DNA of 64,000 nucleotides from positions 19,919,365 through 19,983,364 of the forward strand of contig NC_092678.1 of the NCBI RefSeq assembly GCF_964355755.1. Reading direction: 5' to 3'. The position numbers and the translations under genes were made by a program. How positions within the stretch are numbered: the first letter of the stretch is position 1; every line of letters begins with the position of its first letter. The stretch is from Antedon mediterranea. Taxonomy: Eukaryota; Animalia; Echinodermata. Under the pieces are notes generated by a model. That model did not search any database. It was not told the origin of the DNA and saw nothing but the letters and a program-made list of their open reading frames with translations. Shown here one piece after another: positions 2,315 through 50,677 of this stretch.

Positions 2315-5300
2315 ATGCCTATTTCTCTTTGTTGTGGAATTAAACTCCGCCTTCCCAAATGTTTACGTAGAACAAGAATAGGTAAGTTGATTACGTTACA
2401 ACATAGGCCTAGTCTGATTCTAACTTTAGGCAAGTTATCCTATCTAGGCGCACACCTATGCCTAATTTGATTATATTACAATGATCTGCGCACTTAATTA
2501 GTAACTTGTGTTGTTTTCTTTACATTTTTGGTAGGCCTATGTACACTTTAAAAAGATAAGATAAGGTTAAAAGTATTAAAACTATGGGAAAATGGCATAA
2601 TTATTGTTAAAAATAATGTATGTTTATGTAACCATAGTTACTGAACTTGTAGTGGTGCGTATAAAATGTCGCGTATGAAAGAGCATCAGCGCGGTGTTAC
2701 TAGTTGACCTCTCTCACGCCGTCACGAGATCACAAAAAGCGGTGTGACGTATGCAAAACAATGAATTGCTCTGGGGGCGTGGCCTGTATTATAATCATAA
2801 TGCTATTGGTGTAAAGTTGGGCGCTTATTTACGTCATAAGAAAAGTAAAACAAAAATCGTGATACGTCGTCGTGTGTGTTTGTTGTTGTGTGTGCGCGGC
2901 GGAGGCGTGACGCGGTCATACCGCCGGTGGTGGTCGGTCGGATCATGGATTCTTTAATCCATGGTCGGATGATCCGTGGACGTGGTATAGTTGGTACGCT
3001 TAGACCTAGGGCCTAGCTAGGCTAGGCCTAGTAGTAGAAGCAGTGTAGTAGGCCTACTGGCCAAAACCTCATATAGATAGATAGGCCTATAGTTATTGCC
3101 CAAGGTATACTATGGCTACTATGCAAACATGCCTAACTAGCTCTAGGCTAGGCCTAGGCCTAGGCTAGACCTAGTCCTAGCCTAGCTAGTAGGGCCTGGC
3201 CCTAGAGGCTACTTTAGGCTAGCCTAGAGAACTAGCCTCTAGGTAGCCTCTAGGTAGGGCCAGCAGGCTAGGCCTAGGCTAGGCCCTATCTATAGTATAG
3301 GCCTAGTTAGGCTAGCCTACCTAGCTAGGCCTATACTATAGATAGGGCCTTGCCTAGTCTAGCCTAGGCCTACAATTCTACTATCTAGTACTAGGCTAGT
3401 AGGCATAAGCATGTAGGTCTAGCTAGGCTGCCTATATAGGCCTAGGGCCTAGCTAGGCCTACCTACCCCTACTCTAGGGCTAGGCTAAAGCTAGTGTAGC
3501 TGGCTAGACTAGCTAGGGCCTGCTAGTTCCTCTAGCTAGCTAGGCTAGCCTCTAGCCAGCTACACTAGCTTAGCCTCTAGCTTTAGCCTAGGGTAGGTAG
3601 GCCTAGTTAGTATATAGGCAGCCTAGTAGAGGCCTTAGCCTAGTACTAGCTAGTAGAAGGCTAGCCTCTAGCTAGGGCTAAGCCTACTAGGCTAGACTAG
3701 CTACTAGCCTAGTATTAATTATTAGTTTAATAGTTAGTATTACGAGGCCTCTCACTAGGCGATCCTATACTAAAGCTACCCAAGACTGAGTATAAGAGCC
3801 TACCTAGCTAGGAGGCCTGGCTAGTATTTTAGGCTGGGCCCTATCTAGCCTAGTTGATATCCCTTCCCAACCAACACTCTATCTTCACACATTGCAAGGC
3901 CGTAGCGAGAGGTTAAAATCAGACGAAGCAATACTTTTAATATAAATTATATTATATAAAATATGACCTCAGCTTCTTAGTGGGGTGGGTTGTGAAATTT
4001 TCAGAGATAATTCGAGCGCCTCTTCTTCCTCATGCTAACTACGGCACTGCATTGTTCATAGTGGTATCTTTTTTTGTAGTTGTAGCAGTCTTACCAGCAG
4101 GACCCCCAGCCCCAGTAGTAGCAGCAGCAACAGGAGATGAAGAAGATGAATCCTATAGACCAATAGATGGAAGTTCAAACAATCAATCATCATCTTCACC
4201 TGCTGCAGGTAGGCCAGTCTTGCATAATAGCCTATCATTTACTATTTTCCTTAGGACACCACAGATTTGTATACAGTATAGGGTGTGCTGTTGGAATATA
4301 TTTACTTTAGAATTAAAGATTAATTTGAAAAACTTTTATCACAGTCAAGTCACTCACTCCTGGCCTGAATGACTTATTACAACTAACAAGCGCAAAACAT
4401 CTGCGATTGACACTAAAACTAGACACGTCCACCACCTGCCAGACATCGCAACTTGCAGTCAAGAGCACCAATGACGAAGATGTACAACTCAAAAAGCGTG
4501 CAGCTACATTTGTGCAAGATATCCTAGCCACTGCAGTTGCAAAATGCCAAGCCATAGAACAAGACGAGAACAACACTGACCGTAAGAACATACACTACCA
4601 TCATGCCTAAAAGTAGTTCAAGCCATCAAAGGTGGAGCATGTGTACCTAAAGCCAACCTCTCCCCAACACCCAACCCAGTCCACCTCGTTAAATAAACCA
4701 ATCTGGAATTTGATGATGAATAATGGTTATTTGAATTTTTTTTAAATAAAGTTTTTTTTTTATCTTAATCATTATTAAAAGAATTGTATAATAATTGATT
4801 ATAATTGTTGACATATCAAAATAATTGTAATAATATCTTTATAGACAAGGCAACTATAGCACAGCAGCCAGCTGAAACCTCCACCTCTGATGAGGATGTC
4901 GAGCTTGACAATCTGGCAACAAGTCTTGTGGAAGAAACTTTGTCAATAGTAATGGCAGAACAACTGGCCACTGTTCATAACAATGAAGCACATCACCCAA
5001 CTGCAGGTAGGCCAGTCTTGCATAATAGCTTATCATTTAATATTTTCTTTAGGACATCACACATGATTTGTTTTAGTGTATATTAGTATGCTGTTGGAAT
5101 ATATTACTTTCTAATTAAAGTTTAATTTGAAAAAACTTTTATCACAGTCAACTCACTCACTCCTGACCTGAATGACTCATTACAACTAACAAGCGCAAAA
5201 CATCTGCGATCGACACAAAAACTAGACACGTCCACCTGCCAGACATCGCAACTTGCAGTGAAGAGCATCAATGACGAAGATATGCAAGTCAAACAGCGTG

Positions 5301-8300
5301 CAGCTACCTTTGTGCAAGATGTCCTAGCCACTGCAGTTGCAAAATGCCAAGCCATAGAACAAGACGAGAACAACACTGACCGTAAGAACATACACTACCA
5401 TCATGCCTAAGCCAATTGAAAGGCCTACCACTAGCATAAATAGATATCGAAAAGTAATTCAAGCCATCAAATGTGGAGCATGTGTACCTAAAGACAACCT
5501 CTCTCCAACACCCACCCCAGTCCACCTCGTTAAATAAACCAATCAATCTCTCATCTTTTTTTTATAATTGATTAAATTCTCTTTCACATTTATATTTAGA
5601 TTTGTTCTTAGAATTGAAGGACAAAATATATAGCTCATGTTTTTCTGTTTTCTTTTCGTCTCTTAATTTAATTTTCTTGTTTTGTTTTTAGATAAACAAT
5701 TTGATGATGAATAACGGTTATTTAAATTTTTTTTAAATAAAGTCATTTTTTTTTATCTTAATCATAAAAGAATTGTATAATAATTGATTATAATTTTAGA
5801 CATATCAAAATAATTGTAATAATATCTCTATAGACAAGGCAACTGAAGCACAGCAGCCAGCTGAAACCTCCACCTCTGATGAGGATGTCGAGCTTGACAA
5901 TCTGGCAACAAGTCTTGTGGAAGAAACTTTGTCAATAGTAATGGCAGAACAACTGGCCACTGTTCATAACAATGAAGCACATCATCCAACTGCAGGTAGG
6001 CCAGCCTTGCATAATAGCTTATCATCTAATATTTTCTTTAGGACATCCCACATGATTTGTTTTAGTGTATATTGGTATGCTGTTGGAATATCTTTATAAT
6101 TAAAGTTTAATTTGAAAAAACTTTTATCACAGTCAACTCACTCACTCCTGGCCTGAATGACTCATTACAACTAACAAGCGCAAAACATCTGCGATCGACA
6201 CAAAAACTAGACACGTCCACCTGCCAGACATCGCAACTTGCAGTCAAGAGCATCAACGACGAAGATATACAAGTCAAACAGCGTGCAGCTACATTTGTAC
6301 AAGATGTCCTAGCCACTGCAGTTGCAAAATGCCAAGCCATAGAACAAGACAAGAACAACACTGACCGTAAGAACATACACTACCATCATGCCTAAGTCAA
6401 TTGATAGGCCTACCACTAGCATAAATAGATATCGAAAAGTAGTTCAAGCCATCAAAGGTGGAGTATGTGTACCTAAAGCCAACCTCTCCCCAACACCCAC
6501 CACAGTCCACCTCGTTAAATAAACCAATCAATCTCTCATCTTTTTTTTATAATTGATTAAATTCTTGTTCACATTTATATTTAGATTTCTTCTCAGAATT
6601 GAAGGACAAAATATATAGCTCATGTTTTTCTGTTTCCTTTTCATCTCTTAATTTAATTTTCTTGTTTTGTTTTTAGATAAAGAATTTGATGATGAATAGC
6701 GGTTAATTAAATTTTTTTTAAATAAAGTCATTGTTGTTTTATCTTAATCATAAAAGAATTGTATAATAATTGATTATAATTTTTGACATATCAAAATAAT
6801 TGTAATAATATCTCTATAGACAAGGCAACTGAAGCACAGCAGCCAGCTGAAACCTCCACCTCTGATGAGGATGTCGAACTTGACAATCTGGCAACAAGTC
6901 TTGTGGAAGAAACTTTTTCAATAGTAATGGCAGAACAACTGGCTACTGTTCATAACAATGAAACACATCATCCAACTGCAGGTAGGCCAGTCTTGCATAA
7001 TAGCTTATCATTTAATATTTTCTTTAGGACATCCCACATGATTTGTTTAAGTGTATATTAGTATGCTGTTGGAATATATTACTTTAGAATTAAAGTTTAA
7101 TTTGAAAAAACTTTTATCACAGTCAACTCACTCACTCCTGGCCTGAATGACTCATTACAACTAACAAGCGCAAAACATCTGCGATCGACACAAAAACTAG
7201 ACACGTCCACCTGCCAGACATCGCAACTTGCAGTGAAGAGCATCAATGACGAAGATATGCAAGTCAAACAGCGTGCAGCTACCTTTGTGCAAGATGTCCT
7301 AGCCACTGCAGTTGCAAAATGCCAAGCCATAGAACAAGACGAGAACAAGACTGACCGTAAGAACATACACTACCATCATGCCTAAGCCAATTGAAAGGCC
7401 TACCACTAGCATAAATAGATATCGAATAGTAGTTCAAGCCATCAAAGGTGGAGCATGTGTACCTAAAGCCAACCTCTCCCCAACACCCACCCCAGTCCAC
7501 CTCGTTAAATAAACCAATCAATCTCTCATCTTTTTTTTATAATTGGTTAAATTCTCTTTCACATTTATATTTAGATTTGTTCTCAGAATTGAAGGACAAA
7601 ATATATAGCTCATGTTTTTCTGTTTTCTTTTCGTCTCTTAATTTAATTTTCTTGTTTTGTTTTTAGATAAACAATTTGATGATGAATAACGGTTATTAAA
7701 ATATTTTTTTAATAAAGTCATTTTTTTTTATCTTAATCATAAAAGAAATGTATAATAATTGATTATAATTTTAGACATATCAAAATAATTGTAATAATAT
7801 CTTTATAGACAAGGCAACTGAAGCACAGCAGCCAGCTGAAACCTCCACCTCTGATGAGGATGTCGAGCTTGACAATCTGGCAACAAGTCTTGTGGAAGAA
7901 ACTTTGTCAATAGTAATGGCAGAACAACTGGCCACTGTTCATAACAATGAAGCACATCATCCAACTGCAGGTAGGCCAGCCTTGCATAATAGCTTATCAT
8001 CTAATATTTTCTTTAGGACATCCCACATGATTTGTTTTAGTGTATATTGGTATGCTGTTGGAATATATTACTTTATAATTAAAGTTTAATTTGAAAAAAC
8101 TTTTATCACAGTCAACTCACTCACTCCTGACCTGAATGACTCATTACAACTAACAAGCGCAAAACATCTGCGATCGACACAAAAACTAGACACGTCCACC
8201 TGCCAGACATCGCAACTTGCAGTGAAGAGCATCAATGACGAAGATATGCAAGTCAACCAGCGTGCAGCTACCTTTGTGCAAGATGTCCTAGCCACTGCAG

Positions 8301-11300
8301 TTGCAAAATGCCAAGCCATAGAACAAGACGAGAACAACACTGACCGTAAGAACATACACTACCATCATGCCTAAGTCAATTGATAGGCCTACCACTAGCA
8401 TAAATAGATATCGAAAAGTAGTTCAAGCCATCAAAGGTGGAGCATGTGTACCTAAAGCCAACCTCTCCCCAACACCCACCCCAATCCACCTCGTTAAATA
8501 AACCAATCAATCTCTCATCTTTTTTTTATAATTGGTTAAATTCTCTTTCACATTTATATTTAGATTTGTTCTCAGAATTAAAGGACAAAATATATAGCTC
8601 ATATTTTTCTGTTTCCTTTTCATCTCTTAATTTAATTTTCTCTTTTTGTTTTTAGATAAAGAATTTGATTATGAATAATGGTTATTTAAATTTTTTTAAA
8701 TTAAAGTCATTTTTTTTATCTTAATCATAAAAGAATTGTATAATAATTGATTATAATTTTTGACATATCAAAATAATTGTAATAATATCTCTATAGACAA
8801 GGCAACTGAAGCACAGCAGCCAGCTGAAACCTCCACCTCTGATGAGGATGTCGAGCTTGACAATCTGGCAACAAGTCTTGTGGAAGAAACTTTGTCAATA
8901 GTAATGGCAGAACATCTGGCCACTGTTCATAACAATGAAGCACATCATCCAACTACAGGTAGGCCAGCCTTGCATATTAGCTTATCATTTAATATTTTCT
9001 TTAGGGCATCCCACATGATTTGTTTTAGTGTATATTAGTATGCTGTTGGAATATATTACTTTATAATTAAAGTTTAATTTGAAAAAACTTTTATCACAGT
9101 CAACTCACTCACTCCTGGCCTGAATGACTCATTACAACTAACAAGCGCAAAACATCTGCGATCGACACTAAAACTAGACACGTCCACTTGCCAGACATCA
9201 CAACTTGCAGTCATGAGCACCATTGATGAAGATGTGCATCTCAAACAGCAGGCAGCTACCTTTGTACAAGATGTCCTATCAACTGAAGTTGCAAAATGTC
9301 AAGACGAGAACAACACTGACCGTAAGAACATACACTATCATCAATTGATAACATACAGTATTTATTTGTAGATATCTAAAAGAAGTTTTAAGCTGTCAAA
9401 AAGGAGTGCGTGTACCTGTAGCCAATCTCTCTCCCAACACCCACCCAGTTAAATAGACCAATCAATCTTTCATCTTTTGTTTTTTTAAACAGATTCTTGT
9501 TTACATTTGTTCATTCTCATTTTTAAAGGAGACAGTATATTAAGCTCATCTTTTTCTGTTTTCTTTTCATCTCTTAATTTCCTTTTCATGCTTTGTTTTT
9601 CGACGAAAAATGTTATGATGAATAAAGAAAATTTGAATAAAAAAAAGATAAATATTCATGATTTGTTGTTATAATTGTTATTATTATTGTATAATTTTTA
9701 GAATATTAATTAAATAGTAATAATTATCAAACAAATTTCTCTATAGACAAGGCAACTGAAGCCCAGCAGAATACTGCAGCAGAGCAGACAACTGCAGAAA
9801 AGCAAACAACTGCAGCCTCCATCTCTGAGGAGGATGAGGAGCTCGACAAGCTTTCAAATTCTGTTGTTCAAGATGTTTTGTCGAAGGTCGCAGAAAATCT
9901 TGCCACCGCCAACCTGCTAACTGAAAAACAGCAGCCACCTGAATCAGCCTACACGGATACAGTAGAGAAAGATCAGAGGAAAGGTACAATATGACTTTTC
10001 ATTCATATGAATTTTCATTTAAGCTTAACCAATCATTTCCATACTGTTATATTTTTTAACAATTTGAAATCTATATTGTAACATATCAGTAACTGAATTT
10101 GCTTTTACCCTGCGCTAGATCTCACAACCGATACTTGCACAGAATACGGAGACCCTTTCTTCGGAATCAAAGGAGATACTGCTATGGCAGGTGGACAATT
10201 TGTAAGTAACTCATAGACCTCACAAAAACAGGTACACAACAAGCAGTGGCATGAGCCTATTTCAATGTACTTAATTTACTGAATGTGAAAAGAGTGAAAA
10301 AATAATTCGGCTTCCCAAAAATAATTTAAAAATAAAGAAGATCTAGGCTATCAAACAACAGGACACTGACCATCCTTGTACATAAAACGTTTTGTGCGGA
10401 TGCGATATGATTATGCCCCACCCCACAACATTTCATTAGAGTCTATGTGACTGGTAGTACCAAAACGGTACCATCCATAATCCGTATTATTTTTTTAAAA
10501 TTTTTACTATGTTTGAATTTTTTATAGGCATCAGATTGCAAAAGCATCCAGGAACAGAATGATGAAATGGATGAAGCATTTTATAAGTATGGAGTGGAAA
10601 GTGATTATGACTGGATAGACATGGGACCTTCAGACCCAAGCGATGAAGAACCAGATGCCTGGGTGAGGCAGAGAGCTATCGCCCAGAGATTAGCAGCCAA
10701 GGCTGCGAGGAGATCTTTGAATATTAACCCTGGTAAGCCAACTGAAGCCTCCATCTGTGATGATGATGAGGAGCTGAACAATCATCCAACTACAGGTAGG
10801 TCAGCCTTTCATAATAGCTTATCATTTAATATTTTCTTTAGGACATCCCACATGATTTGTTTTATTGTATATTAGTATGCTGTTGGAATATATTACTTTA
10901 TAATTAAAGTTTAATTTGAAAAAACTTTTATCACAGTCAACTCACTCACTCCTGGCCTGAATGACTCATTACAACTAACAAGCGCAAAACATCTGCGATC
11001 GACACTAAAACTAGACACGTCCACCTGCCAGACATCACAACTTGCAGTCATGTTCACCAATGATGAAGATGTGCATCTCAAACAGCAAGCAGCTACCTTT
11101 GTACAAAATGTCCTATCAACTGCAGTTGCAAAATGTCAATACGAGAACAACACTGACCGTAAGAACATACACTATCATCAATTGGTAACATACAATATTT
11201 ATTTGTAGATATCTAAAAGAAGTTTTAAGCTGTAAAAAAGGAGTGTGTGTACCTGTAGCCAATCTCTCTCCCAACACCCACCCAGTTAAATAGACCAATC

Positions 11301-12817
11301 AATTTTTCATCTTTTGTTTTTTTAAACAGATTCTTGTTTACATTTGTTCATTGTAATTTTTAAAGGAGACAGTATATTAAGCTCATCTTTTTCTGTTTTC
11401 TTTTCATCTCTTAATTTCCTTTTCATGCTTTGTTTTTCGACGAAAAATGTTATGATGAATAAAGAACATTTGAATAAAAAAAAGATAAATATTCATGATT
11501 TGTTGTTATAATTGTTATTATTATTGTATAATGTTTAAAATATTAATTAATTGTAATAATTATCAAACAAATTTCTCTATAGACAAGGCAACTGAAGCCC
11601 AGCAGAATACTGCAGCACAGCAGACTACTGCAGAAAAACAAACAACTGCAGCCTCCATCTCTGAGGAGGATGAGGAGCTCGACAAGCTTTCAAATTCTGT
11701 TGTTCAAGATGTTTTGTCAAAGGTCGCAGAAAATCTTGCCACCGCCAACCTGCTAACTGAAGAACAGCAGCCACCTGAATCAGCCAACACGGATACAGTA
11801 GAGAAAGATCAGAGGAAAGGTACAATATGACTTTTCATTCATATGAATTTTCATTTAAGCCTTAACCAATCATTTCCTATACTGTTATTTTTTTTAACAA
11901 TTTGAAATCTATATTATAACATATCAGTAACTGAATTTCCTTTTACCCTGCCCTAGATCTCACAACCGATATTTGCACAGAATACGGAGACCCTTTCTTC
12001 GGAATCAAAGGAGATACTGCTATGGCAGGTGGACAATTTGTAAGTAACTCATAGACCTCACAAAAACAGGTACACAACAAGCAGTGGCATGAGCCTATTT
12101 CAATGAATGTGAAAAGAGTGAAAAAATATTTCGGCTTCCCAAAAATAATTTAAAAATAAAGAAGATCTAGGCTATCAAACAACAGGACAATGACCATCCT
12201 TGTACATAAAACGTTTTGTGCGGATGCGATATGATTATGCCCCACCCCACAACATTTCATTAGAGTCTATGTGACTGGTAGTACCAAAACGGTACCATCC
12301 ATAATCCATATTATTTTTTTTAAGTTTTTACTATGTTTGAATTTTTTATAGGCATCAGATTGCAAAAGCATCCAGGAACAGAATGACGAAATGGATGAAG
12401 CATTTTATAAGTATGGAGTGGAAAGTGACTATGACTGGATAGACATGGGACCTACAGACCCAAGCGACGAAGAACCAGATGCCTGGGTGAGGCAGAGAGC
12501 TATCGCCCAAAGATTAGCAGCTAAGGCTGCTATGAAATCATCGAATATTAACCCTGGTAAGTTTATTTTTATTTTTAAAAGCTGATTTGTTTGTCTACGC
12601 TTTACAAATTCTTCCCTATTAGTAGGGCCTCATGAGTACTAAAAATATTCATTCATTTTAATGTTTAGACCAACACGAGCTACAAGACGTCGACAATGAT
12701 GAGGAAACAAATTGCCGACCAATAGTAGTTGACATGACATCACTGGCTGACATGACAGCAGATGATGATCCAAACTTAACCTATCATGATGCTACGATAG
12801 ACCAATACAATTACTGA
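2315..12817 (+). CDS. Copy 1: multi-exon acidic repeat protein (~1294 aa predicted), putative lipid-anchored multivalent AKAP-like scaffold with 14 helix exons
   Basis: Exons: ex1 2315-2381, ex2 4080-4208, B 4345-4581, A 4845-5006, then four further B/A pairs at ~990 bp period, B' ~9100, C 9747-9983, D 10119-10201, E+ 10528-10795, B', C, D, E, F 12669-12817 (TGA). All junctions are GT-AG, the phases are compatible (1-1; D 1-0; E 0-1) and the summed length 3885 nt is divisible by 3. AATAAA at 12928. Function inferred from motifs. Confidence 0.8.
2650..2990. promoter_or_regulatory. CpG-rich motif cluster in intron 1 (TGACG half-sites, TTACGTCA, GGGGCGTGGC GC-box), repeated in each copy
   Basis: Local CpG enrichment in AT-rich DNA, with Sp/KLF-like and CRE-like motifs kept in all five copies. 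Confidence 0.4.
2995..3855. repeat. CTAG/AGGCCT/TAG-rich low-complexity palindromic tract in intron 1 (also ~17455-18115, ~29570-30170, ~43695-44335, ~55310-55962)
   Basis: Dense ctag, taggccta and gctagc words. Perfect 26 bp inverted repeat at 3281-3306/3325-3350. Confidence 0.9.
3895..4049. mobile_element. ~155 bp MITE-like element in intron 1 (also 18167-18322, 30212-30367, 44379-44534, 56011-56166)
   Basis: Terminal inverted repeats caaggccgtag ... ctacggccctg (10/11 match in copies 2-5), flanked by the direct repeat CATTG on both sides. No coding capacity. Confidence 0.6.
4345..9320 (+). repeat. Internal ~990 bp tandem module (exon A 162 nt + intron + exon B 234 nt + intron). Equivalent blocks at ~18610-23580, ~30650-35635, ~44820-47790, ~56455-61390
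   Basis: acaaggcaactgaagcacagcagcc recurs at ~4845 (variant), 5834, 6820, 7809 and 8797, and likewise in the other copies. Confidence 0.97.
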
Positions 12818-16844: not shown

Positions 16845-19800
16845 ATGCCTATTTCTCTTTGTTGTGGAATTAAACTCCGCCTTCCCAAATGTTTACGTAG
16901 AACAAGAATAGGTAAGTTGATTACGTTACATTACAACATAGGCCTAGTCTGATTCTAACTTTAGGCAAGTCATCCTATCTAGGCACCATGCCTAATTTAG
17001 ATTATAATTATTACAACACTTAATTAGTAACTGGTGTTGTTTTCTTTACATTTTTGGTAGGCCTATGTACACTTTAAAAAAATAAGGTTAAAAGTATTAA
17101 AACTATGGGAAAATGGCATAATTATTGTTACAATAATGTTTGTTTATGTAACCGTAGTTACTGAACTTGTAGTGGTGCGTATAAAATGGTCGCGTAAAAG
17201 AGCATCAGCGCGGTCTTAGTTGACCTCTCACGTCACGAGATCACAAAAAGCGGTGTGACGTATGTAAAACAATGAATTGCTCTTGGGGGCGTGGCCTGTA
17301 TTATAATCACAATGCTATTGGTGTAAAGTTAGGCGCTTAATTACGTCATAAAATGAAAAAAAAATCGTGATACGTTGCGAGTGTGACGTGTGGTGGGGGG
17401 TGTGTTTGTCGAGAGTCGGTGGTTGATCGGGGTCGGATCCGTGGACGTGGTAGTTTGTACTAGCTTAGGCCTTAGGCTAGCTATAGGCCTACTAGGCCTA
17501 GTAGTAGAAGCAGTAGGCCTACTGGCCAAAACCTCAAAACATGCCTAGGTAGCGGTACTACTACTAGCCTACTACAGTAGTACTACTAGTATAGGGTAGG
17601 CCTAGTACTAGCCTAGCCTAGCTAGCCTATAGAGGGCCTAGCTAGACTAGAGCCTGCCCTGCGTGAGGCTAGCCTAGCCTCAGCTCAGGCCTAGCTAGCT
17701 AGAGTAGTAGGTCTAGACTCTCTAGGCCTAATGCTAGTCATCTAGGCCCTAGCTAGGCTAGCCTCTAGCCAGCTACACTAGCTTAGCCTCTCTATAGCTT
17801 TAGCCTAGGCTAGTAGGGTAGGTAGGCCTAATTAATTAGTATATAGAATTATAGGTTAGGCAGCCTAACCTAGAGGCCTACTACTAGGCTAGCCTAGGCC
17901 TTAGCCTAATACTAGCTAGTAGAAGGCTAGCCTCTAGCTAGGGCTAGGCCTACTATTATAGGCTAGACTAGCCTAGTATTAACTATTAGTTTAATAGTTT
18001 AGTATTACGAGGCCTCTCACTAGGCGATCCTATACTAAGCTACCCAAGAGTATAAGAGCCTACCTAGCTAGGAGGCCTGGCTAGTATTTTAGGCTGTGCC
18101 CTATCTAGCCTACAGTAGTTGATATCCCTTCCCAACCAACACTCTATCTTCACACGTGAGACATTGCAAGGCCGTAGCGAGAGGTTAAAATGAGACGAAG
18201 CAATATGCTTTTAATATAATTATATTATATAAAATATGACCTCAGCTTCTTAGTGGGCTGGGTTGTGAAATTTTCAGAGATAATTCGAGCGCCTCTTCTT
18301 CCTCATGCTAACTACGGCCCTGCATTGTTCATATTGGTATCTTTTTTTGTAGTTGTAGCAGTCTTACCAGCAGGACCCCCAGCCCCAGTAGTAGCAGCAG
18401 CAACAGGAGATGAAGAAGATGAATCCTATAGACCAATAGATGGAAGTTCGAACATTCAATCATCATCTTCACCTGCTGCAGGTAGGCCAGCCTTGCATAA
18501 TAGCCTATCATTTACTATTTTCCTTAGGACACCACAGATTTGTATACAGTATATAGGGTATGCTGTTTACTTTAGAATTAAAGATTAATTTGAAAAACTT
18601 TTATCACAGTCAACTCACTCACTCCTGGCCTGAATGACTTATTACAACTAACAAGCGCAAAACATCTGCGATTGACACTAAAACTAGACACGTCCACCTG
18701 CCAGACATCGCAACTTGCAGTCAAGAGCACCAATGACGAAGATGTGCAACTCAAAAAGCGTGCAGCTACATTTGTACAAGATGTCCTAGCCACTGCAGTT
18801 GCAAAATGCCAAGCCATAGAACAAGACGAGAACAACACTGACCGTAAGAACATACACTACCTTTATGCCTAAGCCAATTGATAGGCCTACCACTAGCATA
18901 AATAGATATCGAAATAATTTTCTTGTTTTGTTCTTAATCTTAGATAAAGAATTTGATGATGAATAATTGTTATTTGAATTTTTTTTAAATAAAGTCTTTT
19001 TTTTATCTTAATCATAAAAGAATTGTATAATAATTGATTATAATTTTAGACATATCAAAATAATTGTAATAATATCTCTTTAGACAAGGCAACTGAAGCA
19101 CAGCAGCCAGCTGAAACCTCCACCTCTGATGAGGATGTCGAGCTTGACAATCTGGCCACAAGTCTTGTGGAAGAAACTTTGTCAGTAGTAATGGCAGAAC
19201 AACTGGCAACTGTTCATAACAATAAAGCACATTATCCAACTGCAGGTAGGCCAGCCTTGCATAATAGGTTATCATTTAATATTTTCTTTAGGACATCCCA
19301 CATGATTTGTTTTAGTGTATATTAGTATGCTGTTGGAATATATTACTTTAGAATTAAAGTTTAATTTGAAGAAACTTTTATCACAGGCAACTCACTCACT
19401 CTTGGCCTGAATGATTCATTACAACTAACAAGCACAAAACATCTGCGATCGTCACAAAAACTAGACACGTCCACCTGCCAGACATCTCAACTTGCAGTCA
19501 AGAGCACCAATGACGAAGATGTACAACTCAAAAAGCGTGCAGCTACATTTGTGCAAGATATCCTAGCCACTGCAGTTGCAAAATGCCAAGCCATAGAACA
19601 AGACGAGAACAACACTGACCGTAAGAACATACACTACCATCATGCCTAAGCCAATTGAAAGGCCTACCACTAGCATAAATAGATATCGAAAAGTAATTCA
19701 AGCCATCAAATGTGGAGCATGTGTACCTAAAGACAACCTCTCCCCAACACCCAACCCAGTCCACCTCGTTAAATAAACCAATCAATCTCTCATCTTTTTT

Positions 19801-22800
19801 TTATAATTGATTAAATTCTCTTTCACATTTATATTTAGATTTGTTCTCAGAATTGAAGGACAAAATATATAGCTCATGTTTTTCTGTTTTCTTTTCGTCT
19901 CTTAATTTAATTTTCTTGTTTTGTTTTTAGATAAACAATTTGATGATGAATAACGGTTATTTAAATTTTTTTTAAATAAAGTCATTTTTTTTTATCTTAA
20001 TCATAAAAGAATTGTATAATAATTGATTATAATTTTAGACATATCAAAATAATTGTAATAATGTCTCTTTAGACAAGGCAACTGAAGCACAGCAGCCAGC
20101 TGAAACCTCCACCTCTGATGAGGATGTCGAGCTTGACAATCTGGCAACAAGTCTTGTGGAAGAAACTTTGTCAATAGTAATGGCAGAACACCTGGCCACT
20201 GTTCATGACAATGAAGCACATCATCCAACTGCAGGTAGGCCAGCCTTGCATAATAGCTTATCCTCTAATATTTTCTTTAGGACATCCCACATATTTTTTT
20301 TTTAGTTTATATTAGTATGCTGTTGGAATATATTACTTTATAATTAAAGTTTAATTTAAAAAAACTTTTATCACAGTCAACCCACTCACCCCTAGCCTGA
20401 ATGACTCATTACAACTAACAAGCGCAAAACATCTGCGATCGTCACAAAAACTAGACACGCCCACCTGCCAGACATCTCAACTTGCAGTCAAGAGCACCAA
20501 CGACAAAGATGTACAACTCAAAAAGCGTGCAGCTACATTTGTGCAAGATATCCTAGCCACTGCAGTTGCAAAATGCCAAGCCATAGAACAAGACGAGAAC
20601 AACACTGACCGTAAGATCATACACTACCATCATGCCTAAGCCAATTGAAAGGCCTACCACTAGCATAAATAGATATCGAAAAGTAATTCAAGCCATCAAA
20701 TGTGGAGCATGTGTACCTAAAGACAACCTCTCCCCAACACCCAACCCAGTCCACCTCGTTAAATAAACCAATCAATCTCTCATCTTTTTTTTATAATTGG
20801 TTAAATTCTCTTTCACATTTATATTTAGATTTGTTCTCAGAATTGAAGGACAAAATATATAGCTCATGTTTTTCTGTTTTCTTTTCGTCTCTTAATTTAA
20901 TTTTCTTGTTTTCTTTTTAGATAAACAATTTGATGATGAATAACGGTTATTTAAATTTTTTTTAAATAAAGTCATTTTTTTTTATCTTAATCATAAAAGA
21001 ATTGTATAATAATTGATTATAATTTTAGACATATCAAAATAATTGTAATAATATCTTTATAGACAAGGCAACTGAAGCACAGCAGCCAGCTGAAACCTCC
21101 ACCTCTGATAAGGATGTCGAACTTGACAATCTGGCAACAAGTCTTGTGGAAGAAACTTTGTCAATAGTAATGGCAGAACACCTGGCCACTGTTCATAACA
21201 ATGAAGCACATCATCCAACTGCAGGTAGGCCAGCCTTGCATAATAGCTTATCATCTAATATTTTCTTTAGGACATCCCACATATTTTTTTTTTTAGTTTA
21301 TATTAGTATGCTGTTGGAATATATTACTTTATAATTAAAGTTTAATTTGAAAAAACTTTTATCACAGTCAACCCACTCACCCCTAGCCTGAATGACTCAT
21401 TACAACTAACAAGCGCAAAACATCTGCGATCGTCACAAAAACTAGACACGTCCACCTGCCAGACATCTCAACTTGCAGTCAAGAGCACCAATGACGAAGA
21501 TGTACAACTCAAAAAGCGTGCAGCTACATTTGTGCAAGATATCCTAGCCACTGCAGTTGCAAAATGCCAAGCCATAGAACAAGACGAGAACAACACTGAC
21601 CGTAAGAACATACACTACCATCATGCCTAAGCCAATTGAAAGGCCTACCACTAGCATAAATAGATATCGAAAAGTAATTCAAGCCATCAAATGTGGAGCA
21701 TGTGTACCTAAAGACAACCTCTCCCCAACACCCACCCCAGTCCACCTCGTTAAATAAACCAATCAATCTCTCATCTTTTTTTTATAATTGGTTAAATTCT
21801 CTTTCACATTTATATTTAGATTTGTTCTCAGAATTGAAGGACAAAATATATAGCTCATGTTTTTCTGTTTTCTTTTCGTCTCTTAATTTAATTTTCTTGT
21901 TTTGTTTTTAGATAAACAATTTGATGATGAATAATGGTTATTTAAATTTTTTTTAAATAAAGTCATTTTTTTTTATCTGAATCATAAAAGAATTGTATAA
22001 TAATTGATTATAATTTTAGACATATCAAAATAATTGTAATAATATCTCTATAGACAAGGCAACTGAAGCACAGCAGCCAGCTGAAACCTCCACCTCTGAT
22101 GAGGATGTCGAGCTTGACAATCTGGCAACAAGTCTTGTGGAAGAAACTTTGTCAATAGTAATGGCAGAACACCTGGCCACTGTTCATAACAATGAAGCAC
22201 ATCATCCAACTGCAGGTAGGCCAGCCTTGCATAAAAGCTTATCATCTAATATTTTCTTTAGGACATCCCACATATTTTTTTTTTTAGTTTATATTAGTAT
22301 GCTGTTGGAATATATTACTTTATAATTAAAGTTTAATTTGAAAAAACTTTTATCACAGTCAACCCACTCACCCCTAGCCTGAATGACTCATTACAACTAA
22401 CAAGCGCAAAACATCTGCGATCGTCACAAAAACTAGACACGTCCACCTGCCAGACATCTCAACTTGCAGTCAAGAGTACCAATGACGAAGATGTACAACT
22501 CAAAAAGCGTGCAGCTACATTTGTGCAAGATATCCTAGCCACTGCAGTTGCAAAATGCCAAGCCATAGAACAAGACGAGAACAACACTGACCGTAAGAAC
22601 ATACACTACCATCATGCCTAAGCCAATTGAATGGCCTACCACTAGCATAAATAGATATCGAAAAGTAATTCAAGCCATCAAATGTGGAGCATGTGTACCT
22701 AAAGACAACCTCTCCCCAACACCCACCCCAGTCCACCTCGTTAAATAAACCAATCAATCTCTCATCTTTTTTTTATAATTGGTTAAATTCTCTTTCACAT

Positions 22801-25800
22801 TTATATTTAGATTTGTTCTCAGAATTGAAGGACAAAATATATAGCTCATGTTTTTCTGTTTTCTTTTTGTCTCTTAATTTAATTTTCTTGTTTTGTTTTT
22901 AGATAAACAATTTGATGATGAATAACGGTTATTTAAATTTTTTTTAAATAAAGTCTTTTTTTTTATCTTAATCATAAAAGAATTGTATAATAATTGATTA
23001 TAATTTTAGACATATCAAAATAATTGTAATAATATCTTTATAGACAAGGCAACTGAAGCACAGCAGCCAGCTGAAACCTCCACCTCTGATGAGGATGTCG
23101 AGCTTGACAATCTGGCAACAAGTCTTGTGGAAGAAACTTTGTCAATAGTAATGGCAGAACAACTGGCCACTGTTCATAACAATGAAGCACATCATCCAAC
23201 TGCAGGTAGGCCAGCCTTGCATTATAGCTTATCATCTAATATTTTCTTTAGGACATCCCACATGATTTGTTTTAGTGTATATTAGTATGCTGTTGGAATA
23301 TATTACTTTAGAATTAAAGTTTAATTTGAAAAAACTTTTATCACAGGCAACTCACTCACTCTTGGCCTTAATGGCTCATTACAATTAACAAGCGCAAAAC
23401 ATCTGCGATCGACACAAAAACTAGACACGTGTACCTGTGAGACATCACAATTTGCAGTCAAGACCAACTATAATGAGGATGTACAACTCAAACAGCGTGT
23501 AGCTACATTTATACAAGATGTCCTAGCCACTGCAGTTGCAAAATGTCAAGCCATAGAGCAAGACGAGAACAACACTGACCGTAAGAACATACACTACCTT
23601 TATGCCTAAGCCAATTGATAGGCGGCCTAACCAACCGATTTCCTAAACTGTTATATTTATTAACAATTAGAAATCTATATTATAACATATCAATAACCCA
23701 ATTTGTTTTTGCTCTCCCCCTCCTCCTAGACCTCACAACCTATACTTGTACAGATCGATGGTCAGAATATGGAGACACTTTCTTCAGATTGAAAGGAAAT
23801 ACTATGGCAGGTGGCCACTTTGTAAGTAACTCATAGACCCTGCCCCACAAAAACATGTACAAAGGCAGTGGCATGTGCCTCTTTCAATGTACGCAGTTTA
23901 ATGAATGTCAAAAAAGAGGAAAACAAATTCTGCTTCCCAAAAATAATTTTTTCCCAACAAAAGCAAAAACCAGAAAAAGAAAATTTAGGCAAAATAAAGA
24001 CGATCTAGGCTACCAAACAACAGGACACTGACCTTCACTACATAAAACGTTATTATGCGGATGCTATACGATTATGCCCAACCCCACATTAGGCGACTGG
24101 TAGTACCACGGTACCATCCTTAGTCCATATTATTTTTTTTTTTTTTACTATGTTTGAATTTTTTATAGGCATCAGATTGCAAAAGCATCCAGGAACAGAA
24201 TGACGAAATGGATGAAGCATTTTATAAGTATGGAGTGGAAAGTGATTATGACTGGATAGACATGGGACCTTCAGACCCAAGCGATGAAGAACCAGATGCC
24301 TGGGTGAGGCAGAGAGCTATCGCCCAGAGATTAGCAGCCAAGGCTGCAAGGAGATCTTTGAATATTAACCCTGGTAAGCCAACTGAAGCCTCCATCTGTG
24401 ATGATGATGAGGAGCTGAACAATCATCCAACTACAGGTAGGTCAGCCTTGCATAATAGCTTATCATTTAATATTTTCTTTAGGACATCCCACATGATTTG
24501 TTTTAGTGTATATTAGTATGCTGTTGGAATATATTACTTTATAATTAAAGTTTAATTTGAAAAAACTTTTATCACAGTCAACTCACTCACTCCTGGCCTG
24601 AATGACTCATTACAACTAACAAGCGCAAAACATCTGCGATCGACACTAAAACTAGACACGTCCACCTGCCAGACATCACAACTTGCAGTCATGAGCACCA
24701 TTGATGAAAATGTGCATCTCAAACAGCAGGCAGCTACCTTTGTACAAGATGTCCTATCAACTGCAGTTGCAAAATGTCAAGACGAGAACAACACTGACCG
24801 TAAGAACATACACTATCATCAATTGATAACATACAGTATTTATTTGTAGATATCTAAAACTTAAAAGAAGTTTTAAGCTGTAAAAAAGGAGTGTGTACCT
24901 GTAGCCAATCTCTCTCCCAACACCCACCCAGTTAAATAGACCAATCAATCTTTCATCTTTTGTTTTTTTAAACAGATTCTTGTTTACATTTGTTCATTCT
25001 AATTTTTAAAGGAGACAGTATATTAAGCTCATCTTTTTCTGTTTTCTTTTCATCTCTTAATTTCCTTTTCATGCTTTGTTTTTCGACGAAAAATTTTATG
25101 ATGAATAAAGAAAATTTGAATAAAAAAAGATAAATATTCATGATTTGTTGTTATAATTGTTATTATTATTGTATAATCTTTAGAATATTAATTAATTGTA
25201 ATAATTATCAAACAAATTTCTCTATAGACAAGGCAACTGAAGCCCAGCAGAATACTGCAGCAGAGCAGACAACTGCAGAAAAGCAAACAACTGCAGCCTC
25301 CATCTCTGAGGAGGATGAGGAGCTCGACAAGCTTTCAAATTCTGTTGTTCAAGATGTTTTGTCGAAGGTCGCAGAAAATCTTGCCACCGCCAACCTGCTA
25401 ACTGAAGAACAGCAGCCACCTGAATCAGCCTACACGGATACAGTAGAGAAAGATCAGAGGAAAGGTACAATATGACTTTTCATTCATATGAATTTTCATT
25501 TAAGCCTTAACCAATCATTTCCATACTGTTATTTTTTTTAACAATTTCAAATCTATATTATAACATATCAGTAACGGAATTTCCTTTTACCCTGCCCTAG
25601 ATCTCACAACCGATACTTGCACAGAATACGGAGACCCTTTCTTCGGAATCAAAGGAGATACTGCTATGGCAGGTGGACAATTTGTAAGTAACTCATAGAC
25701 CTCACAAAAACAGGTACACAACAAGCAGTGGCATGAGCCTATTTCAATGTACTTAATTTACTGAATGTGAAAAGAGTGAAAAAATAATTCGGCTTCCCAA

Positions 25801-26455
25801 AAATAATTTAAAAATAATGAAGATCTAGGCTATCAAACAACAGGACAATGACCATCCTTGTACATAAAACGTTTTGTGCGTATGCGATATGATTATGCCC
25901 CACCCCACAACATTTCATTAGAGTCCACGGTACCATCCATAATCCGTATTATTTTTTTAAAGTTTTTACTATGTTTGAATTTTTTATAGGCATCAGATTG
26001 CAAAAGCATCCAGGAACAGAATGACGAAATGGATGAAGCATTTTATAAGTATGGAATGGAAAGTGACTATGACTGGATAGACATGGGACCTACAGACCCA
26101 AGCGACGAAGAACCAGATGCCTGGGTGAGGCAGAGAGCTATCGCCCAAAGATTAGCAGCTAAGGCTGCTATGAAATCATCGAATATTAACCCTGGTAAGT
26201 TTATTTTTATTTTTAAAAGCTGATTTGTTTGTCTACGCTTTACAAATTCTTCCCTATTAGTAGGGCCTCATGAGTACTAAAAATATTCATTCATTTTAAT
26301 GTTTAGACCAACACGAGCTACAAGACGTCGACAATGATGAGGAAACAAATTGCCGACCAATAGTAGTTGACATGACATCACTGGCTGACATGACAGCAGA
26401 TGATGATCCAAACTTAACCTATCATGATGCTACGATAGACCAATACAATTACTGA
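16845..26455 (+). CDS. Copy 2 of the repeat-protein gene (~1221 aa predicted; 5 A + 7 B/B' + 1 C helix exons)
   Basis: Order ex1 (16845-16911), ex2 (18353-18481), B,(A,B)x5, D', E+, B', C, D, E, F (26307-26455). Splice sites are conserved and I saw no in-frame stops. Confidence 0.8.
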
Positions 26456-28969: not shown

Positions 28970-31900
28970 ATGCCTATTTCTCTTTGTTGTGGAATTAAAC
29001 TCCGCCTTCCCAAATGTTTACGTAGAACAAGAATAGGTAAGTTGATTACGTTACATTACAACATAGGCCTAGTCTGATTCTAACTTTAGGCAAGTTATCC
29101 TATCTAGGCACCATGCCTAATTTAGATTATATTACAATGATCTGCGCACTTAATTAGTAACTGGTGTTGTTTTCTTTACATTTTTGGTAGGCCTATGTAC
29201 ACTTTAAAAAGATAAGGTTAAAAGTATTAAAACTATGGGAAAATGGCATAATTATTGTTACAATAATGTTTGTTTATGTAACCGTAGTTACTGAACTTGT
29301 AGTGGTGCGTATAAAATGGTCGCGTAAAAGAGCATCAGCGCGGTCTTAGTAGTTGACCTCTCACGTCACGAGATCACAAAAAGCGGTGTGACGTATGTAA
29401 AACAATATTATTGCTCTGGGGGGCGTGGCCTGTATTATAATCACAATGCTATTGGTGTAAAGTTAGGCGCTTATTTACGTCATAAAATGAAAAAAAAATC
29501 GTGAGTGTGTGGGGTGTGTTTGTCGAGAGTCGGTGGTTGATCGGGGTCGGATCCGTGGACGTGGTAGTTTGTAGCCTACTAGCTTAGGCCTAGGCTAGCA
29601 GGCCTAGTACTAGTAGTAGAAGCAGTAGGCCTACTGGCCAAAACCTCAAAACATGCCTAGCTAGGCCTAGGTAGCGGTACTATCCTACTACAGTAGTACT
29701 ACTAGCCTAGTATAGGGTAGGCCTAGCTACTAGCCTAGCCTATAGAGGGCCTAGCTAGATAGAGGCTAGCCTAGCCTCAGCTCAGCAGGCCTAGCTAGTA
29801 GTAGGTCTAGACTCTCTAGGCCTAATGCCAGTGATCTAGGCCCTAGCTAGGCTAGCGTCTAGCCAGCTACACTAGCTTAGCCTCTCTATAGGTTTAGCCT
29901 AGGCTAGTAGGGTAGGTAGGCCTATCTAGTTAGTATATAGGCAGCCTAGCCCTATAGAGGCCTACTACTAGGCTAGGCCTTAGCCTAGTACTAGCTAGTA
30001 GAAGGCTAGCCTCTAGCTAGGCTAGGGCTAGGCCTACTATTATTAGTTTAATAGTTTAGTATTACGAGGCCTCTCACTAGGCGATCCTATACTAAGCTAC
30101 CCAAGAGTATAAGAGCCTACCTAGCTAGGAGGCCTGGCTAGTATTTTAGGCTGTGCCCTATCTAGCCTAGTTGATATCCCTTCCCAACCAACACTCTATC
30201 TTCACACATTGCAAGGCCGTAGCGAGAGGTTAAAATCAGACGAAGCAATATGCTTTTAATATAATTATATTATATAAAATATGAACTCAGCTTCTTAGTG
30301 GGCTGGGTTGTGAAATTTTCAGAGATAATTCGAGCGCCTCTTCTTCCTCATGCTAACTACGGCCCTGCATTGTTCATATTGGTATCTTTTTTTGTAGTTG
30401 TAGCAGTCTTACCAGCAGGACCCCCAGCCCCAGTAGTAGCAGCAGCAACAGGAGATGAAGAAGATGAATCCTATAGACCAATAGATGGAAGTTCGAACAA
30501 TCAATCATCATCTTCACCTGCTGCAGGTAGGCCAGCCTTGCATAATAGCCTATCATTTACTATTTTCCTTAGGACACCACAGATTTGTATATAGGGTATG
30601 CTGTTTACTTTAGAATTAAAGATTAATTTGAAAAACTTTTATCACAGTCAACTCACTCACTCCTGGCCTGAATGACTTATTACAACTAACAAGCGCAAAA
30701 CATCTGCGATTGACACTAAAACTAGACACGTCCACCTGCCAGACATCGCAACTTGCAGTCAAGAGCACCAATGACGAAGATGTGCAACTCAAAAAGCGTG
30801 CAGCTACATTTGTACAAGATGTCCTAGCCACTGCAGTTGCAAAATGCCAAGCCATAGAACAAGACGATAACAACACTGACCGTAAGAACATACACTACCT
30901 TTATGCCTAAGCCAATTGATAGGCCTACCACTAGCATAAATAGATATCGAAATAATTTTCTTATTTTGTTTTTAGATAAAGAATTTGATGATGAATAATT
31001 GTTATTTGAATTTTTTTTAAATAAAGTCTTTTTTTTATCTTAATCATAAAAGAATTGTATAATAATTGATTATAATTTTTGACATATCAAAATAATTGTA
31101 ATAATATCTCTATAGACAAGGCACCTGAAGCACAGCAGCCAGCTGAAACCTCCACCTCTGATGAGGATGTCGAGCTTGACAATCTGGCAACAAATCTTGT
31201 GGAAGAAACTTTGTCAATAGTAATGGCAGAACACCTGGCCACTGTTCATGACAATGAAGCACATCATCCAACTGCAGGTAGGCCAGCCTTGCATAATAGC
31301 TTATCATTTAATATTTTCTTTAGGACATCCCACATGATTTGTTTTAGTGTATATTAGTATGCTGTTGGAATATATTACTTTAGAATTAAAGTTTAATTTG
31401 AAAAAAACTTTTATCACAGGTAACTCACTCACTCTTGGCCTGAATGATTCATTACAACTAACAAGCGCAAAACATCTGCGATCGACACAAAAACTAGACA
31501 CGTCCACCTGCCAGACATCGCAACTTGCAGTCAAGAGCATCAATGACGAAGATATGGAAATCAAACAGCGTGCAGCTACCTTTGTGCAAGATGTCCTAGC
31601 CACTGCAGTTGCAAAATGCCAAGCCATAGAACAAGACGAGAACAACACTGACCGTAAGAACATACACTACCATCATGCCTAAGCCAATTAATAGGCCTAC
31701 CACTAGCATAAATAGATATCGAAAAGTAGTTCAAGCCATCAAAGGTGGAGCATGTGTACCTAAAGCCAACCTCTCCCCAACACCCATCACAGTCCACCTC
31801 GCTAAATAAACCAATCAATCTCTCATCTTTTTTTTATAATTAGTTAAATTCTTGTTCACATTTATATTTATATTTGTTCTCAGAAATGAAGGACAAAATA

Positions 31901-37900: not shown

Positions 37901-38525
37901 GACCATCCTTACATAAAACGTTATGTGCGGATGCGATATGATTATGCCCCACCCCACAACATTTCATTAGAGTCTATGTGACTGGTAGTACCAAAACGGT
38001 ACCATCCATAATCCGTATTATTTTATTTTTTTTATTTACTATGTTTTAATTTTTTATAGGCATCAGATTGCAAAAGCATCCAGGAACAGAATGACGAAAT
38101 GGATGAAGCATTTTATAAGTATGAAGTGGAAAGTGATTATGACTGGATAGACATGGGACCTACAGACCCAAGCGACGAAGAACCAGATGCCTGGGTGAGG
38201 CAGAGAGCTATTGCCCAAAGATTAGCAGCTAAGGCTGCTATGAAATCATCGAATTTTAACCCTGGTAAGTTTATTTTTATTTTTAAAAGCTGATTTGTTT
38301 GTCTACGCTTTACAAATTCTTCCCTATTAGTAGGGCCTCATGAGTACTAAAAATATTCATTCATTTTAATGTTTAGACCAACACGAGCTACAAGACGTCG
38401 ACAATGATGAGGAAACAAATTGCCGACCAATAGTAGTTGACATGACATCACTGGCTGACATGACAGCAGATGATGATCCAAACTTAACCTATCATGATGC
38501 TACGATAGACCAATACAATTACTGA
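28970..38525 (+). CDS. Copy 3 of the repeat-protein gene (~1227 aa predicted; 13 helix exons)
   Basis: Same exon order as copy 2. Exon C (from 37261) has an in-frame 18-nt insertion. Terminal exon ends TAC TGA at 38525. Confidence 0.8.
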
Positions 38526-49000: not shown

Positions 49001-50677
49001 CTGACCGTAAGAACATACACTATCATCAATTGATAACATACAGTATTTATTTGTAGATATCTAAAAGAAGTTTTAAGCTGTCAAAAAGGAGTGTGTGTAC
49101 CTGTAGCCAATCTCTCTCCCAACACCCACCCAGTTAAATAGATCAATCAATCTTTCATCTTTTGTTTTTTTAAACAGATTCTTGTTTACATTTGTTCATT
49201 CTCATTTTTAAAGGAGACAGTATATTAAGCTCATCTTTTTCTGTTTTCTTTTCATCTCTTAATTTCCTTTTCATGCTTTGTTTTTCGACGAAAAATTTTA
49301 TGATGAATAAAGAACATTTGAATAAAAAAAGATAAATATTCATGATTTGTTGTTATAATTGTCATTATTATTGTATAATCTTTAGAATATTAATTAATTG
49401 TAATAATTATCAAACAAATTTCTCTATAGACAAGGCAACTGAAGCCCAGCAGAATACTGCAGCACAGCAGACTACTGCAGAAAAACAAACAGCTGCAGCC
49501 TCCATCTCTGAGGAGGATGAGGAGCTCGACAAGCTTTCAAATTCTGTTGTTCAAGATGTTTTGTCGAAGGTCGCAGAAAATCTTGCCACCGCCAACCTGC
49601 TAACTGAAGAACAGCAGCCACCTGAATCAGCCTACACGGATACAGTAGAGAAAGATCAGAGGAAAGGTACAATATGACTTTTCATTCATATGAATTTTCA
49701 TTTAAGCCTTAACCAATTATTTCCATACTGTTATTTTTTTTAACAATTTGAAATCTATATTATAACATATCAGTAACTGAATTTGCTTTTACCCTGCCCT
49801 AGATCTCACAACCGATACTTGCACAGAATACGGAGACCCTTTCTTCGGAATCAAAGGAGATACTGCTATGGCAGGTGGACAATTTGTAAGTAACTCATAG
49901 ACCTCACAAAAACAGGTACACAACAAGCAGTGGCATGAGCCTATTTCAATGTACTTAATTTACTGAATGTGAAAAGAGTGAAAAAATAATTCGGCTTCCC
50001 AAAAATAATTTAAAAATAAAGAAGATCTAGGCTATCAAACAACAGGACAATGACCATCCTTGTACATAAAACGTTTTGTGCGGATGCGATATGATTATGC
50101 CCCACCCCACAACATTTCATTAGAGTCTATGTGACTGGTAGTACCAAAACGGTACCATCCATAATCCGTATTATTTTTTTTAAGTTTTTACTATGTTTGA
50201 ATTTTTTATAGGCATCAGATTGCAAAAGCATCCAGGAACAGAATGACGAAATGGATGAAGCATTTTATAAGTATGGAATGGAAAGTGACTATGACTGGAT
50301 AGACATGGGACCTTCAGACCCAAGCGACGAAGAACCAGATGCCTGGGTGAGGCAGAGAGCTATCGCCCAAAGATTAGCAGCTAAGGCTGCTATGAAATCA
50401 TCGAATATTAACCCTGGTAAGTTTATTTTTATTTTTAAAAGCTGATTTGTTTGTCTACGCTTTACAAATTCTTCCCTATTAGTAGGGCCTCATGAGTACT
50501 AAAAATATTCATTCATTTTAATGTTTAGACCAACACGAGCTACAAGACGTCGACAATGATGAGGAAACAAATTGCCGACCAATAGTAGTTGACATGACAT
50601 CCCTGGCTGACATGACAGCAGATGATGATCCAAACTTAACCTATCATGATGCTACGATAGACCAATACAATTACTGA
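43083..50677 (+). CDS. Copy 4 of the repeat-protein gene (~957 aa predicted; 3 A + 5 B/B' + 1 C = 9 helix exons)
   Basis: Same architecture with two fewer ~990 bp A/B modules. Terminal exon ends at 50677. Confidence 0.8.

Follow-up and report, generated by a model that had tools for sequence, protein, structure and literature searches.

Organisation of the gene array

The window that we analysed is a 64-kb stretch of the genome of the crinoid Antedon mediterranea (contig NC_092678.1), and self-comparison revealed that it is filled by five tandem copies of one uncharacterised crinoid gene, each copy being 12-14 kb long with nested 1-kb and 1.8-kb repeats. We modestly favour reading the locus as a crinoid tandem gene array assembled from recombining exon units with one helix each, the product of which would likely be a scaffold that docks protein kinase A (PKA). 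In RefSeq, the products of the array are named 'uncharacterised', and those gene copies that lie beyond the window are known to us through RefSeq proteins only.

Across the five copies we mapped 91 exons in addition to a coding exon 1 (ex1) in each, which makes 16-21 exons per gene copy (Table 1). Every one of the 91 has AG in front of it, and GT follows in each case save for the four F exons, which are terminal, and for the final E, truncated by the window end. Next to ex1 is ex2 (129 nt, with an acceptor at 4080 that RefSeq model P0006 also uses). The 62 exons that encode a predicted helix belong to classes A (162 nt in 23/23), B (234 nt in 26/27 and 237 nt in one), B' (222 nt in 6/6), and C (237 nt in 5/6 and 255 nt in one), and all of them are of phase 1-1 with a length that is a multiple of three. 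Exons D (83 nt) and D' (92 nt) are both of phase 1-0, and E (205 nt) is of phase 0-1. Here, the exon lengths, the phase 1-1 symmetry, and the helix-exon counts of 14, 13, 13, 9, and 13 for copies 1-5 that a sequence-only reading of this DNA had proposed all match our map. With its three E modules, a further RefSeq protein (P0005), which originates from outside the window, matches none of the five copies.

With every exon used, the reading frame stays open for 1294 residues in copy 1, 1221 in copy 2, 1227 in copy 3, and 957 in copy 4. The frame of copy 5 is interrupted by a stop at codon 879, where its first E reads TGA (62112-62114) and the other nine E exons have TGG. This TGA would truncate the product after 11 helices unless D' and E were skipped as a pair, and it could also be an assembly error. 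RefSeq model P0003 begins 3' of this stop, by eye in the B' of copy 5.

The coding ex1, which was absent from the sequence-only reading, is intact in 5/5 copies; another candidate for exon 1 (approximately 2946-2984) was dropped, there being no ATG in copies 2-5. Moreover, the first E of each gene can be read through to a donor 63 nt further on, and it is this 268-nt form that the RefSeq models use. The 63-nt extension (10733-10795 in copy 1) is a mosaic in which C-like sequence is joined to a 3' end resembling A, and it represents a frame-keeping exon fusion.

Table 1. Positions of the copy 1 exons and of gene copies 2-5 within the window.
Feature	Position	Strand	Remarks
Exon 1, copy 1	2315..2381	+	ATG, 22 codons, Cys pair plus basic residues, donor of phase 1; start of P0006 matches
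ex2	4080..4208	+	129 nt, phase 1-1; upstream acceptor 4005 would give 204 nt
B exon 1	4345..4581	+	237 nt (+3), phase 1-1, one helix
A exon 1	4845..5006	+	162 nt, phase 1-1, one helix
Four more B-A units, ~990 bp	5148..8958	+	B at 5148, 6133, 7123, 8112; A at 5834, 6820, 7809, 8797
B' exon	9100..9321	+	222 nt, phase 1-1
C exon	9747..9983	+	237 nt, phase 1-1, one helix, 18-bp internal repeat
D exon	10119..10201	+	83 nt, phase 1-0
First E, extended	10528..10795	+	268 nt, phase 0-1; internal donor after 10732
Second B'	10937..11158	+	joint 11158 to 11583 in run X1
Second C	11583..11819	+	run X1 joints to D and to 12376
Second D	11957..12039	+	mapped exon; joints in run X1
Last E	12352..12556	+	205 nt; cryptic acceptor before 12376
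Terminal coding exon F	12669..12817	+	carries stop; AATAAA at 12928
Gene copy 2	16845..26455	+	13 helix exons
Gene copy 3	28970..38525	+	13 helix exons, with a 255-nt C and a B/B' chimera as the last B
Gene copy 4	43083..50677	+	9 helix exons; source of RefSeq model P0004
Gene copy 5	54707..63999	+	13 helix exons; in-frame stop 62112-62114; cut by window end

Conservation of the reading frame

Comparison of the exons within each class gave 134 distinct substitutions and just two indels, both multiples of three (+3 in the first B and +18 in the C of copy 3). With the differences between classes included (-12 for B versus B' and +12/-3 for D versus D'), 5/5 exonic indels keep the frame. The introns (86 in eight classes, with the ex1-ex2 intron left out) hold 175 substitutions and about 56 distinct indels, a total that is approximate in that some of the events are probably split alignments, and 11/56 are multiples of three; excluding homopolymer slips changes this little (10/44). 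Measured per substitution, frameshifting indels number 0/134 in exons versus 45/175 in introns (p=8e-11). The like-for-like comparison of in-frame shares is 2/2 versus 11/56 (p=0.047), and the share of 5/5 versus 11/56 (p=7e-4) mixes within-class and between-class events. The ratio of non-synonymous to synonymous variation (pN/pS) is 0.55 overall (p=0.002; 45 synonymous and 81 non-synonymous variants, with two length-variant exons omitted), and by class it is 0.56 for B and 0.22 for E. In fact, the sequence-only reading had taken the in-frame exonic indels as a sign of selection on the reading frame, and this is borne out by both the indel counts and pN/pS, as frameshifts are not seen to be as frequent in exons as in introns. 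Frame conservation is thus beyond chance and the exons are protein-coding, with mild amino-acid constraint and mild purifying selection.

We consider it very improbable that the A/B region is decaying or untranslated, with only the B'-C-D-E-F end working, or that the unit numbers are partly artefacts of assembly. Such a view would agree with a substitution density that is equal in exons and introns (~85 per kb), with pN/pS values of 1.04 for A and 1.13 for B', with the one stop in copy 5, and with the fragmentary state of the RefSeq models, whose starts lie within A, B', or D'. However, the 50 A and B exons contain no frameshift and no stop, though their introns hold dozens of frameshifting indels, and the pN/pS of B is well below one. 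As for assembly, each unit has private variants, the divergence of 2-5% is far above long-read error, and in the DNA-like sequencing run X2 the A and B exons occur at several times the depth of ex2.

Conservation of the frame is no proof that exons are optional, and it is equally expected if they are always included. Moreover, a crossover at homologous positions of like units preserves the frame provided that the coding length of the unit is a multiple of three, so the symmetry of single exons is not needed for this. Such symmetry is best read as an inheritance from a founder module of phase 1-1. A class of disordered proteins whose symmetric exons multiplied through internal tandem duplication has already been described (PMC3632108), and among human genes highly similar neighbouring exons share one symmetric type of phase in 108/118 cases (PMC3632108). 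Symmetric exons being what tandem exon duplication in disordered proteins leads one to expect, the exon-phase pattern itself is already known; it is a textbook one, telling us no more than that these exons are protein-coding and arose by tandem duplication.

Splicing

Evidence on splicing came from contigs of run X1, which we took by guess to be RNA. Four X1 joints with GT..AG borders (11158-11583, 11819-11957, 12039-12352, and 12556-12669) coincide with 4/4 of the testable predicted introns from B' to F, and none of the four was found in runs X2-X4. A fifth X1 joint leads from C (11819) to an acceptor 24 nt inside E (12376), at a depth of 13.8 versus 10.1 for the C-D joint, these being contig depths and not levels. 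This joint leaves out only D and causes a frameshift, with a stop three codons further on. The stop lies 170 nt upstream of the last junction, where the usual rule would predict nonsense-mediated decay. The same acceptor is present in 10/10 E exons. Hence, the only alternative splice seen is of a kind that the idea of symmetric cassettes does not predict.

For the upstream repeats, neither X1 nor X2 contigs over 17100-19330 list a spliced joint for ex2-B, B-A, A-B, A-A, or B-B; the X1 contigs run across exon-intron borders there, and such low-depth repeat contigs decide neither splicing nor skipping. In RefSeq model P0004, thirteen exon peptides of copy 4 follow one another with no skip, and the A and B exons would seem to be constitutively included.

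Regulated skipping of single symmetric exons could, besides recombination, yield isoforms with different numbers of helices, as in oyster bindin, though we regard this as unlikely here. The helix exons are symmetric one by one, all have their GT-AG sites intact, and alternative splicing does occur at least once (C to E+24). Furthermore, in human genes alternative splicing correlates with symmetry and disorder (PMC3632108), and the oyster provides a precedent (PMC5712786). Yet the single alternative joint causes a frameshift and does not alter how many helices its own module has, P0004 uses its exons without interruption, and the three named Antedon RefSeq proteins bear no isoform label. Moreover, the splice sites are near-identical within each class, which leaves little for selective regulation to act on.

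Recombination among the repeat units

When the four-gamete test was applied to the 23 B-A units, 502/1653 informative site pairs proved incompatible. Site pairs at short range are incompatible less often (0.15 vs 0.30; PHI-like p=0.0005), and while recurrent mutation could inflate the raw count of incompatible pairs, it would not produce this effect of distance. The minimum number of crossovers (Rm) is 16. Moreover, B-A units diverge by 3.5% within a gene and by 3.9% between genes. In copy 5, the first four units are in common with copy 2 and the fifth is nearest to the second unit of copy 4, and in copy 3 the last B has B' letters across its middle, so forming a B/B' chimera. The 23 units are therefore recombinant mosaics, a finding that supports unequal crossover or gene conversion.

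The copies differ by whole 1-kb and 1.8-kb units, with B'-C-D-E present twice in copy 1 and the others having B-D'-E followed by B'-C-D-E. On a larger scale, a 16-kb block (10023-26195) is duplicated at 47832-64000 with 97.7% identity, and since both of its ends lie inside genes, a whole gene was apparently duplicated through crossover within the repeats. A crossover between homologous introns would add or remove entire B-A (1 kb) or B'-C-D-E (1.8 kb) units, and unequal crossover together with gene conversion would be the most likely source of the differences in unit number. We hold it as highly probable that recombination drives the unit number. The sequence-only reading had proposed that valency is tunable by exon skipping and unequal crossover; the part on crossover or conversion stands on the mosaic units and Rm=16, whereas that on skipping is still conjectural, the sole alternative joint being the one that skips D and shifts the frame.

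Over the ex2 region (17894-18504), run X2 gave one unbroken 599-nt contig of a copy-4-like haplotype, and the window contains several haplotypes. This hints at turnover or homogenisation that differs between individuals, bearing in mind that the source species of X2 may be another and that contigs drop variants. Contig depth was rejected as a measure of copy number, as the ratios disagree among runs X2, X3, and X4 of one sample.

The predicted helices and their candidate partners

The predicted helices of A, B, B', and C align in one register. A-kinase anchoring proteins (AKAPs) are defined by an amphipathic helix of 14-18 residues with a conserved face at positions 2, 5, 6, 9, 10, 13, 14, and 17 (PMC12083921), and 7-8 of the eight hydrophobic-face positions are filled in all 62 helix exons (one of them with a proline), as well as in 17/17 scored helices from the crinoid Anneissia japonica. 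Variants at the face are mostly conservative (L/V/I and A/V). When single exons were shuffled, 1.3-4.5% of trials satisfied the combined filter. The A, C, and Anneissia helices seem nearest to those of AKAP18 and Ht31. The F/Y-A pair at helix positions 1-2 was absent from the windows scored, position 1 being E, Q, H, or R. This motif marks AKAP helices selective for RI (PMC12083921). Amphipathic helices of the AKAP kind do not discriminate between binding to PKA and to DPY-30 (PMC3494852). As judged from the helix pattern, we lean slightly toward docking of a D/D domain, be it that of PKA or of a related RIIa-clan dimer. In the A exon of copy 3 at 33102-33263, a proline occupies face position 13, which is expected to weaken the site.

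The Asp and Glu content is 18%, and a single-sequence AlphaFold2 model has separate helices over the predicted segments with no compact fold (predicted local distance difference test score of 37, a low value that may also reflect the missing alignment). The product would mostly be a disordered acidic chain, likely docking PKA (or a RIIa-clan dimer) at each predicted helix, and it may be tethered to the membrane by way of exon 1, through the Cys pair and the basic residues there. Moreover, 'valency' in the earlier proposal presupposes that the helices bind a partner.

Several observations weigh against such docking. The face pattern is loose, with 47% of P0004 shuffles holding at least one passing window; 16/17 scored Anneissia helices fall below the moment cut-off of 0.30; and within A and B the helix positions vary about as much as the linkers do. 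No Pfam AKAP or RII-binding family was matched at E<=10 by nine exon peptides and five full proteins, and the sole AKAP match was SmAKAP on an Anneissia protein (P0008, described below), below cut-off at E=0.069. Unrelated helical families, such as Sgf11_N, outscore the AKAP profiles by summing over repeats, and the PDB search gave no significant match (best E 0.12). To these can be added the A-class pN/pS of 1.04 given above and the receptor-like setting of the P0008 repeats. As for other searches, Pfam gave only sub-threshold coiled-coil-like matches for the nine exon peptides, the ESM Atlas gave no usable feature match and structure matches with template modelling scores by query of <=0.23 at best, and homology to FSIP2 was not found, with no such Pfam family or named homologue among the searches run.

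A somewhat different proposal, for which we see little probability, is that the helices bind another helical partner (a Sus1/ENY2-type clamp, a histone-fold, or a FAT-type domain) or each other rather than a D/D domain. Indeed, Sgf11_N is above the Pfam cut-off on two Anneissia proteins (32.6 vs 26.2 bits on P0007 and 35 bits on P0008), as are TFIID_20kDa and CBFD_NFYB_HMF on P0007. These scores are, however, sums over repeats with no single stretch that passes alone, and the Antedon proteins are without matches to any of the three families.

Relatives in Anneissia japonica

The homologue searches yielded Antedon proteins and, as the only relatives from elsewhere, two A. japonica proteins, XP_033114178.1 (P0007) and XP_033109166.1 (P0008). 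P0007 matches exon B at E=2e-8 and has ten repeats, with the helix as the aligned part, and P0008 has eight related repeats. Like the Antedon products, both consist of repeats (8-10 of 78-87 residues) in which a similar helix is set in acidic Ser/Thr-rich linkers. In contrast, they have one helix type per repeat, their linkers align poorly, and P0008 is modelled with a tail of a GPS motif and seven-transmembrane (7TM) sequence. More precisely, its repeats precede a Cys-rich region, the GPS motif, and a partial 7TM, as in the ectodomain of an adhesion G-protein-coupled receptor (GPCR). The repeats of P0008 would be extracellular if its model is right, and P0008 itself may be either a chimeric gene model or a genuine fusion to an adhesion GPCR.

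This bears on the proposal, distinctly unlikely in our estimation, that the repeats form an extracellular or luminal module of an acidic Ser/Thr-rich spacer plus an amphipathic helix, within a type II membrane protein if acceptor 4005 is used. Besides the tail of P0008, phase 1-1 exons are typical of extracellular modules, and the Anneissia repeats have about one N-glycosylation sequon each. The in-frame acceptor option (4005-4079) would add 25 codons to ex2 with a membrane-span-like hydrophobic stretch, and this long form is open in 5/5 copies, its 19-residue hydropathy being 2.51 vs 1.72, after a basic N-terminus. Against this, RefSeq uses the short ex2, the hydrophobic stretch overlaps the T-rich acceptor tract of the 129-nt ex2, and an X1 contig has a 1-nt insertion in the extension (at a depth of only 3.2, and possibly an error). 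Moreover, Antedon shows no enrichment of sequons (9, with 8.1 expected), and P0008 begins inside a repeat, ends after a partial 7TM, and may be a fused model.

Comparison with known systems

We compared the array with described systems. With the disordered proteins of the class named above (PMC3632108) it has in common successions of like exons in one phase, encoding modules with short motifs that in Antedon are predicted to be disordered. Unlike in that class, exon pairs or quartets were duplicated in Antedon together with their introns, are still recombining, and lie within a whole-gene array. As in AKAP220, SKIP/SPHKAP (PMC12083921), and RSP3 (PMC3494852), a 14-18 residue amphipathic helix with the same hydrophobic positions is predicted in a chain that would otherwise be unfolded. 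Those proteins are described in these sources with two helices each, whereas the Antedon genes have 9-14, one per exon, with the number varying between paralogues. There is no N-terminal FA motif of the RI-selective kind in the register used and no sequence homology, the putative likeness being one of helix pattern.

Oyster sperm bindin (PMC5712786) likewise has tandem repeat exons in a marine invertebrate, intron recombination, and a variable repeat number. Its repeats are F-lectin domains under positive selection, and their number (1-5) is set by demonstrated alternative splicing. The Antedon genes differ in having pN/pS below 1 and no folded domain; the one run of contigs listed no in-frame skip joint. 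Accordingly, bindin-like recombination among repeats was found in Antedon (the PHI-like result, Rm, and the B/B' chimera above), and bindin-like positive selection on a binding face was not (pN/pS 0.55). The SpTransformer (Sp185/333) family of sea urchins (PMC5491942, PMC8634487) also comprises clustered near-identical echinoderm genes with internal repeats and a family size that likely varies among individuals. Those genes, however, have two exons with the repeats inside exon 2, as against the 16-21 exons and exon-intron repeat units of Antedon, and no homology was found.

Our literature search, with subscription journals outside its coverage, found nothing on crinoid AKAPs or on invertebrate AKAPs with tandem repeats, and nothing on this gene family among 15 of 55 papers on crinoid genomes. 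We see a known mechanism at work in an apparently undescribed family, likely one of many-site kinase-anchoring scaffolds to judge by its helices. If these bind PKA, nature provides in this array a graded set of scaffolds, whose 9, 13, and 14 sites go well beyond the two described for AKAPs in the papers cited, and thereby a direct test of anchoring valency in cyclic AMP signalling. The locus is, besides, a clear example of recombination remodelling a gene array at several scales, with fragmentary RefSeq models.

Going further, one may picture a crinoid-specific AKAP family of very high valency, in which each gene product would hold as many as 9-14 kinase dimers, sufficient for cross-linking into a lattice or condensate. 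Its valency and dose would change in evolution through crossover on three scales, those of the 1-kb unit, of the 1.8-kb module, and of the whole gene, and would differ between individuals, and the frameshifting C-to-E splice would act as a switch that removes the tail. This we offer as a doubtful, tentative extension.

Other features of the window

Rfam gave 0 matches over window positions 1-30000, and minus-strand open reading frames of 90-101 residues were set aside as shadows that overlie B exons or minisatellite. Intergenic minisatellites include a 65-bp unit repeated four times in three spacers (14679-14943, 40856-41120, and 52540-52804) and a 19-bp unit with 9.4 vs 19.4 copies in two spacers (27643-27821 and 39837-40205). 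Intron 1 has a low-complexity tract rich in CTAG/CTAGG (3000-3850, and at the equivalent place in each copy) that is strongly divergent among copies. Lastly, a short stretch before ex2 (18150-18240) is covered at very high depth by many unrelated X1 and X2 contigs and is probably part of a dispersed repeat.

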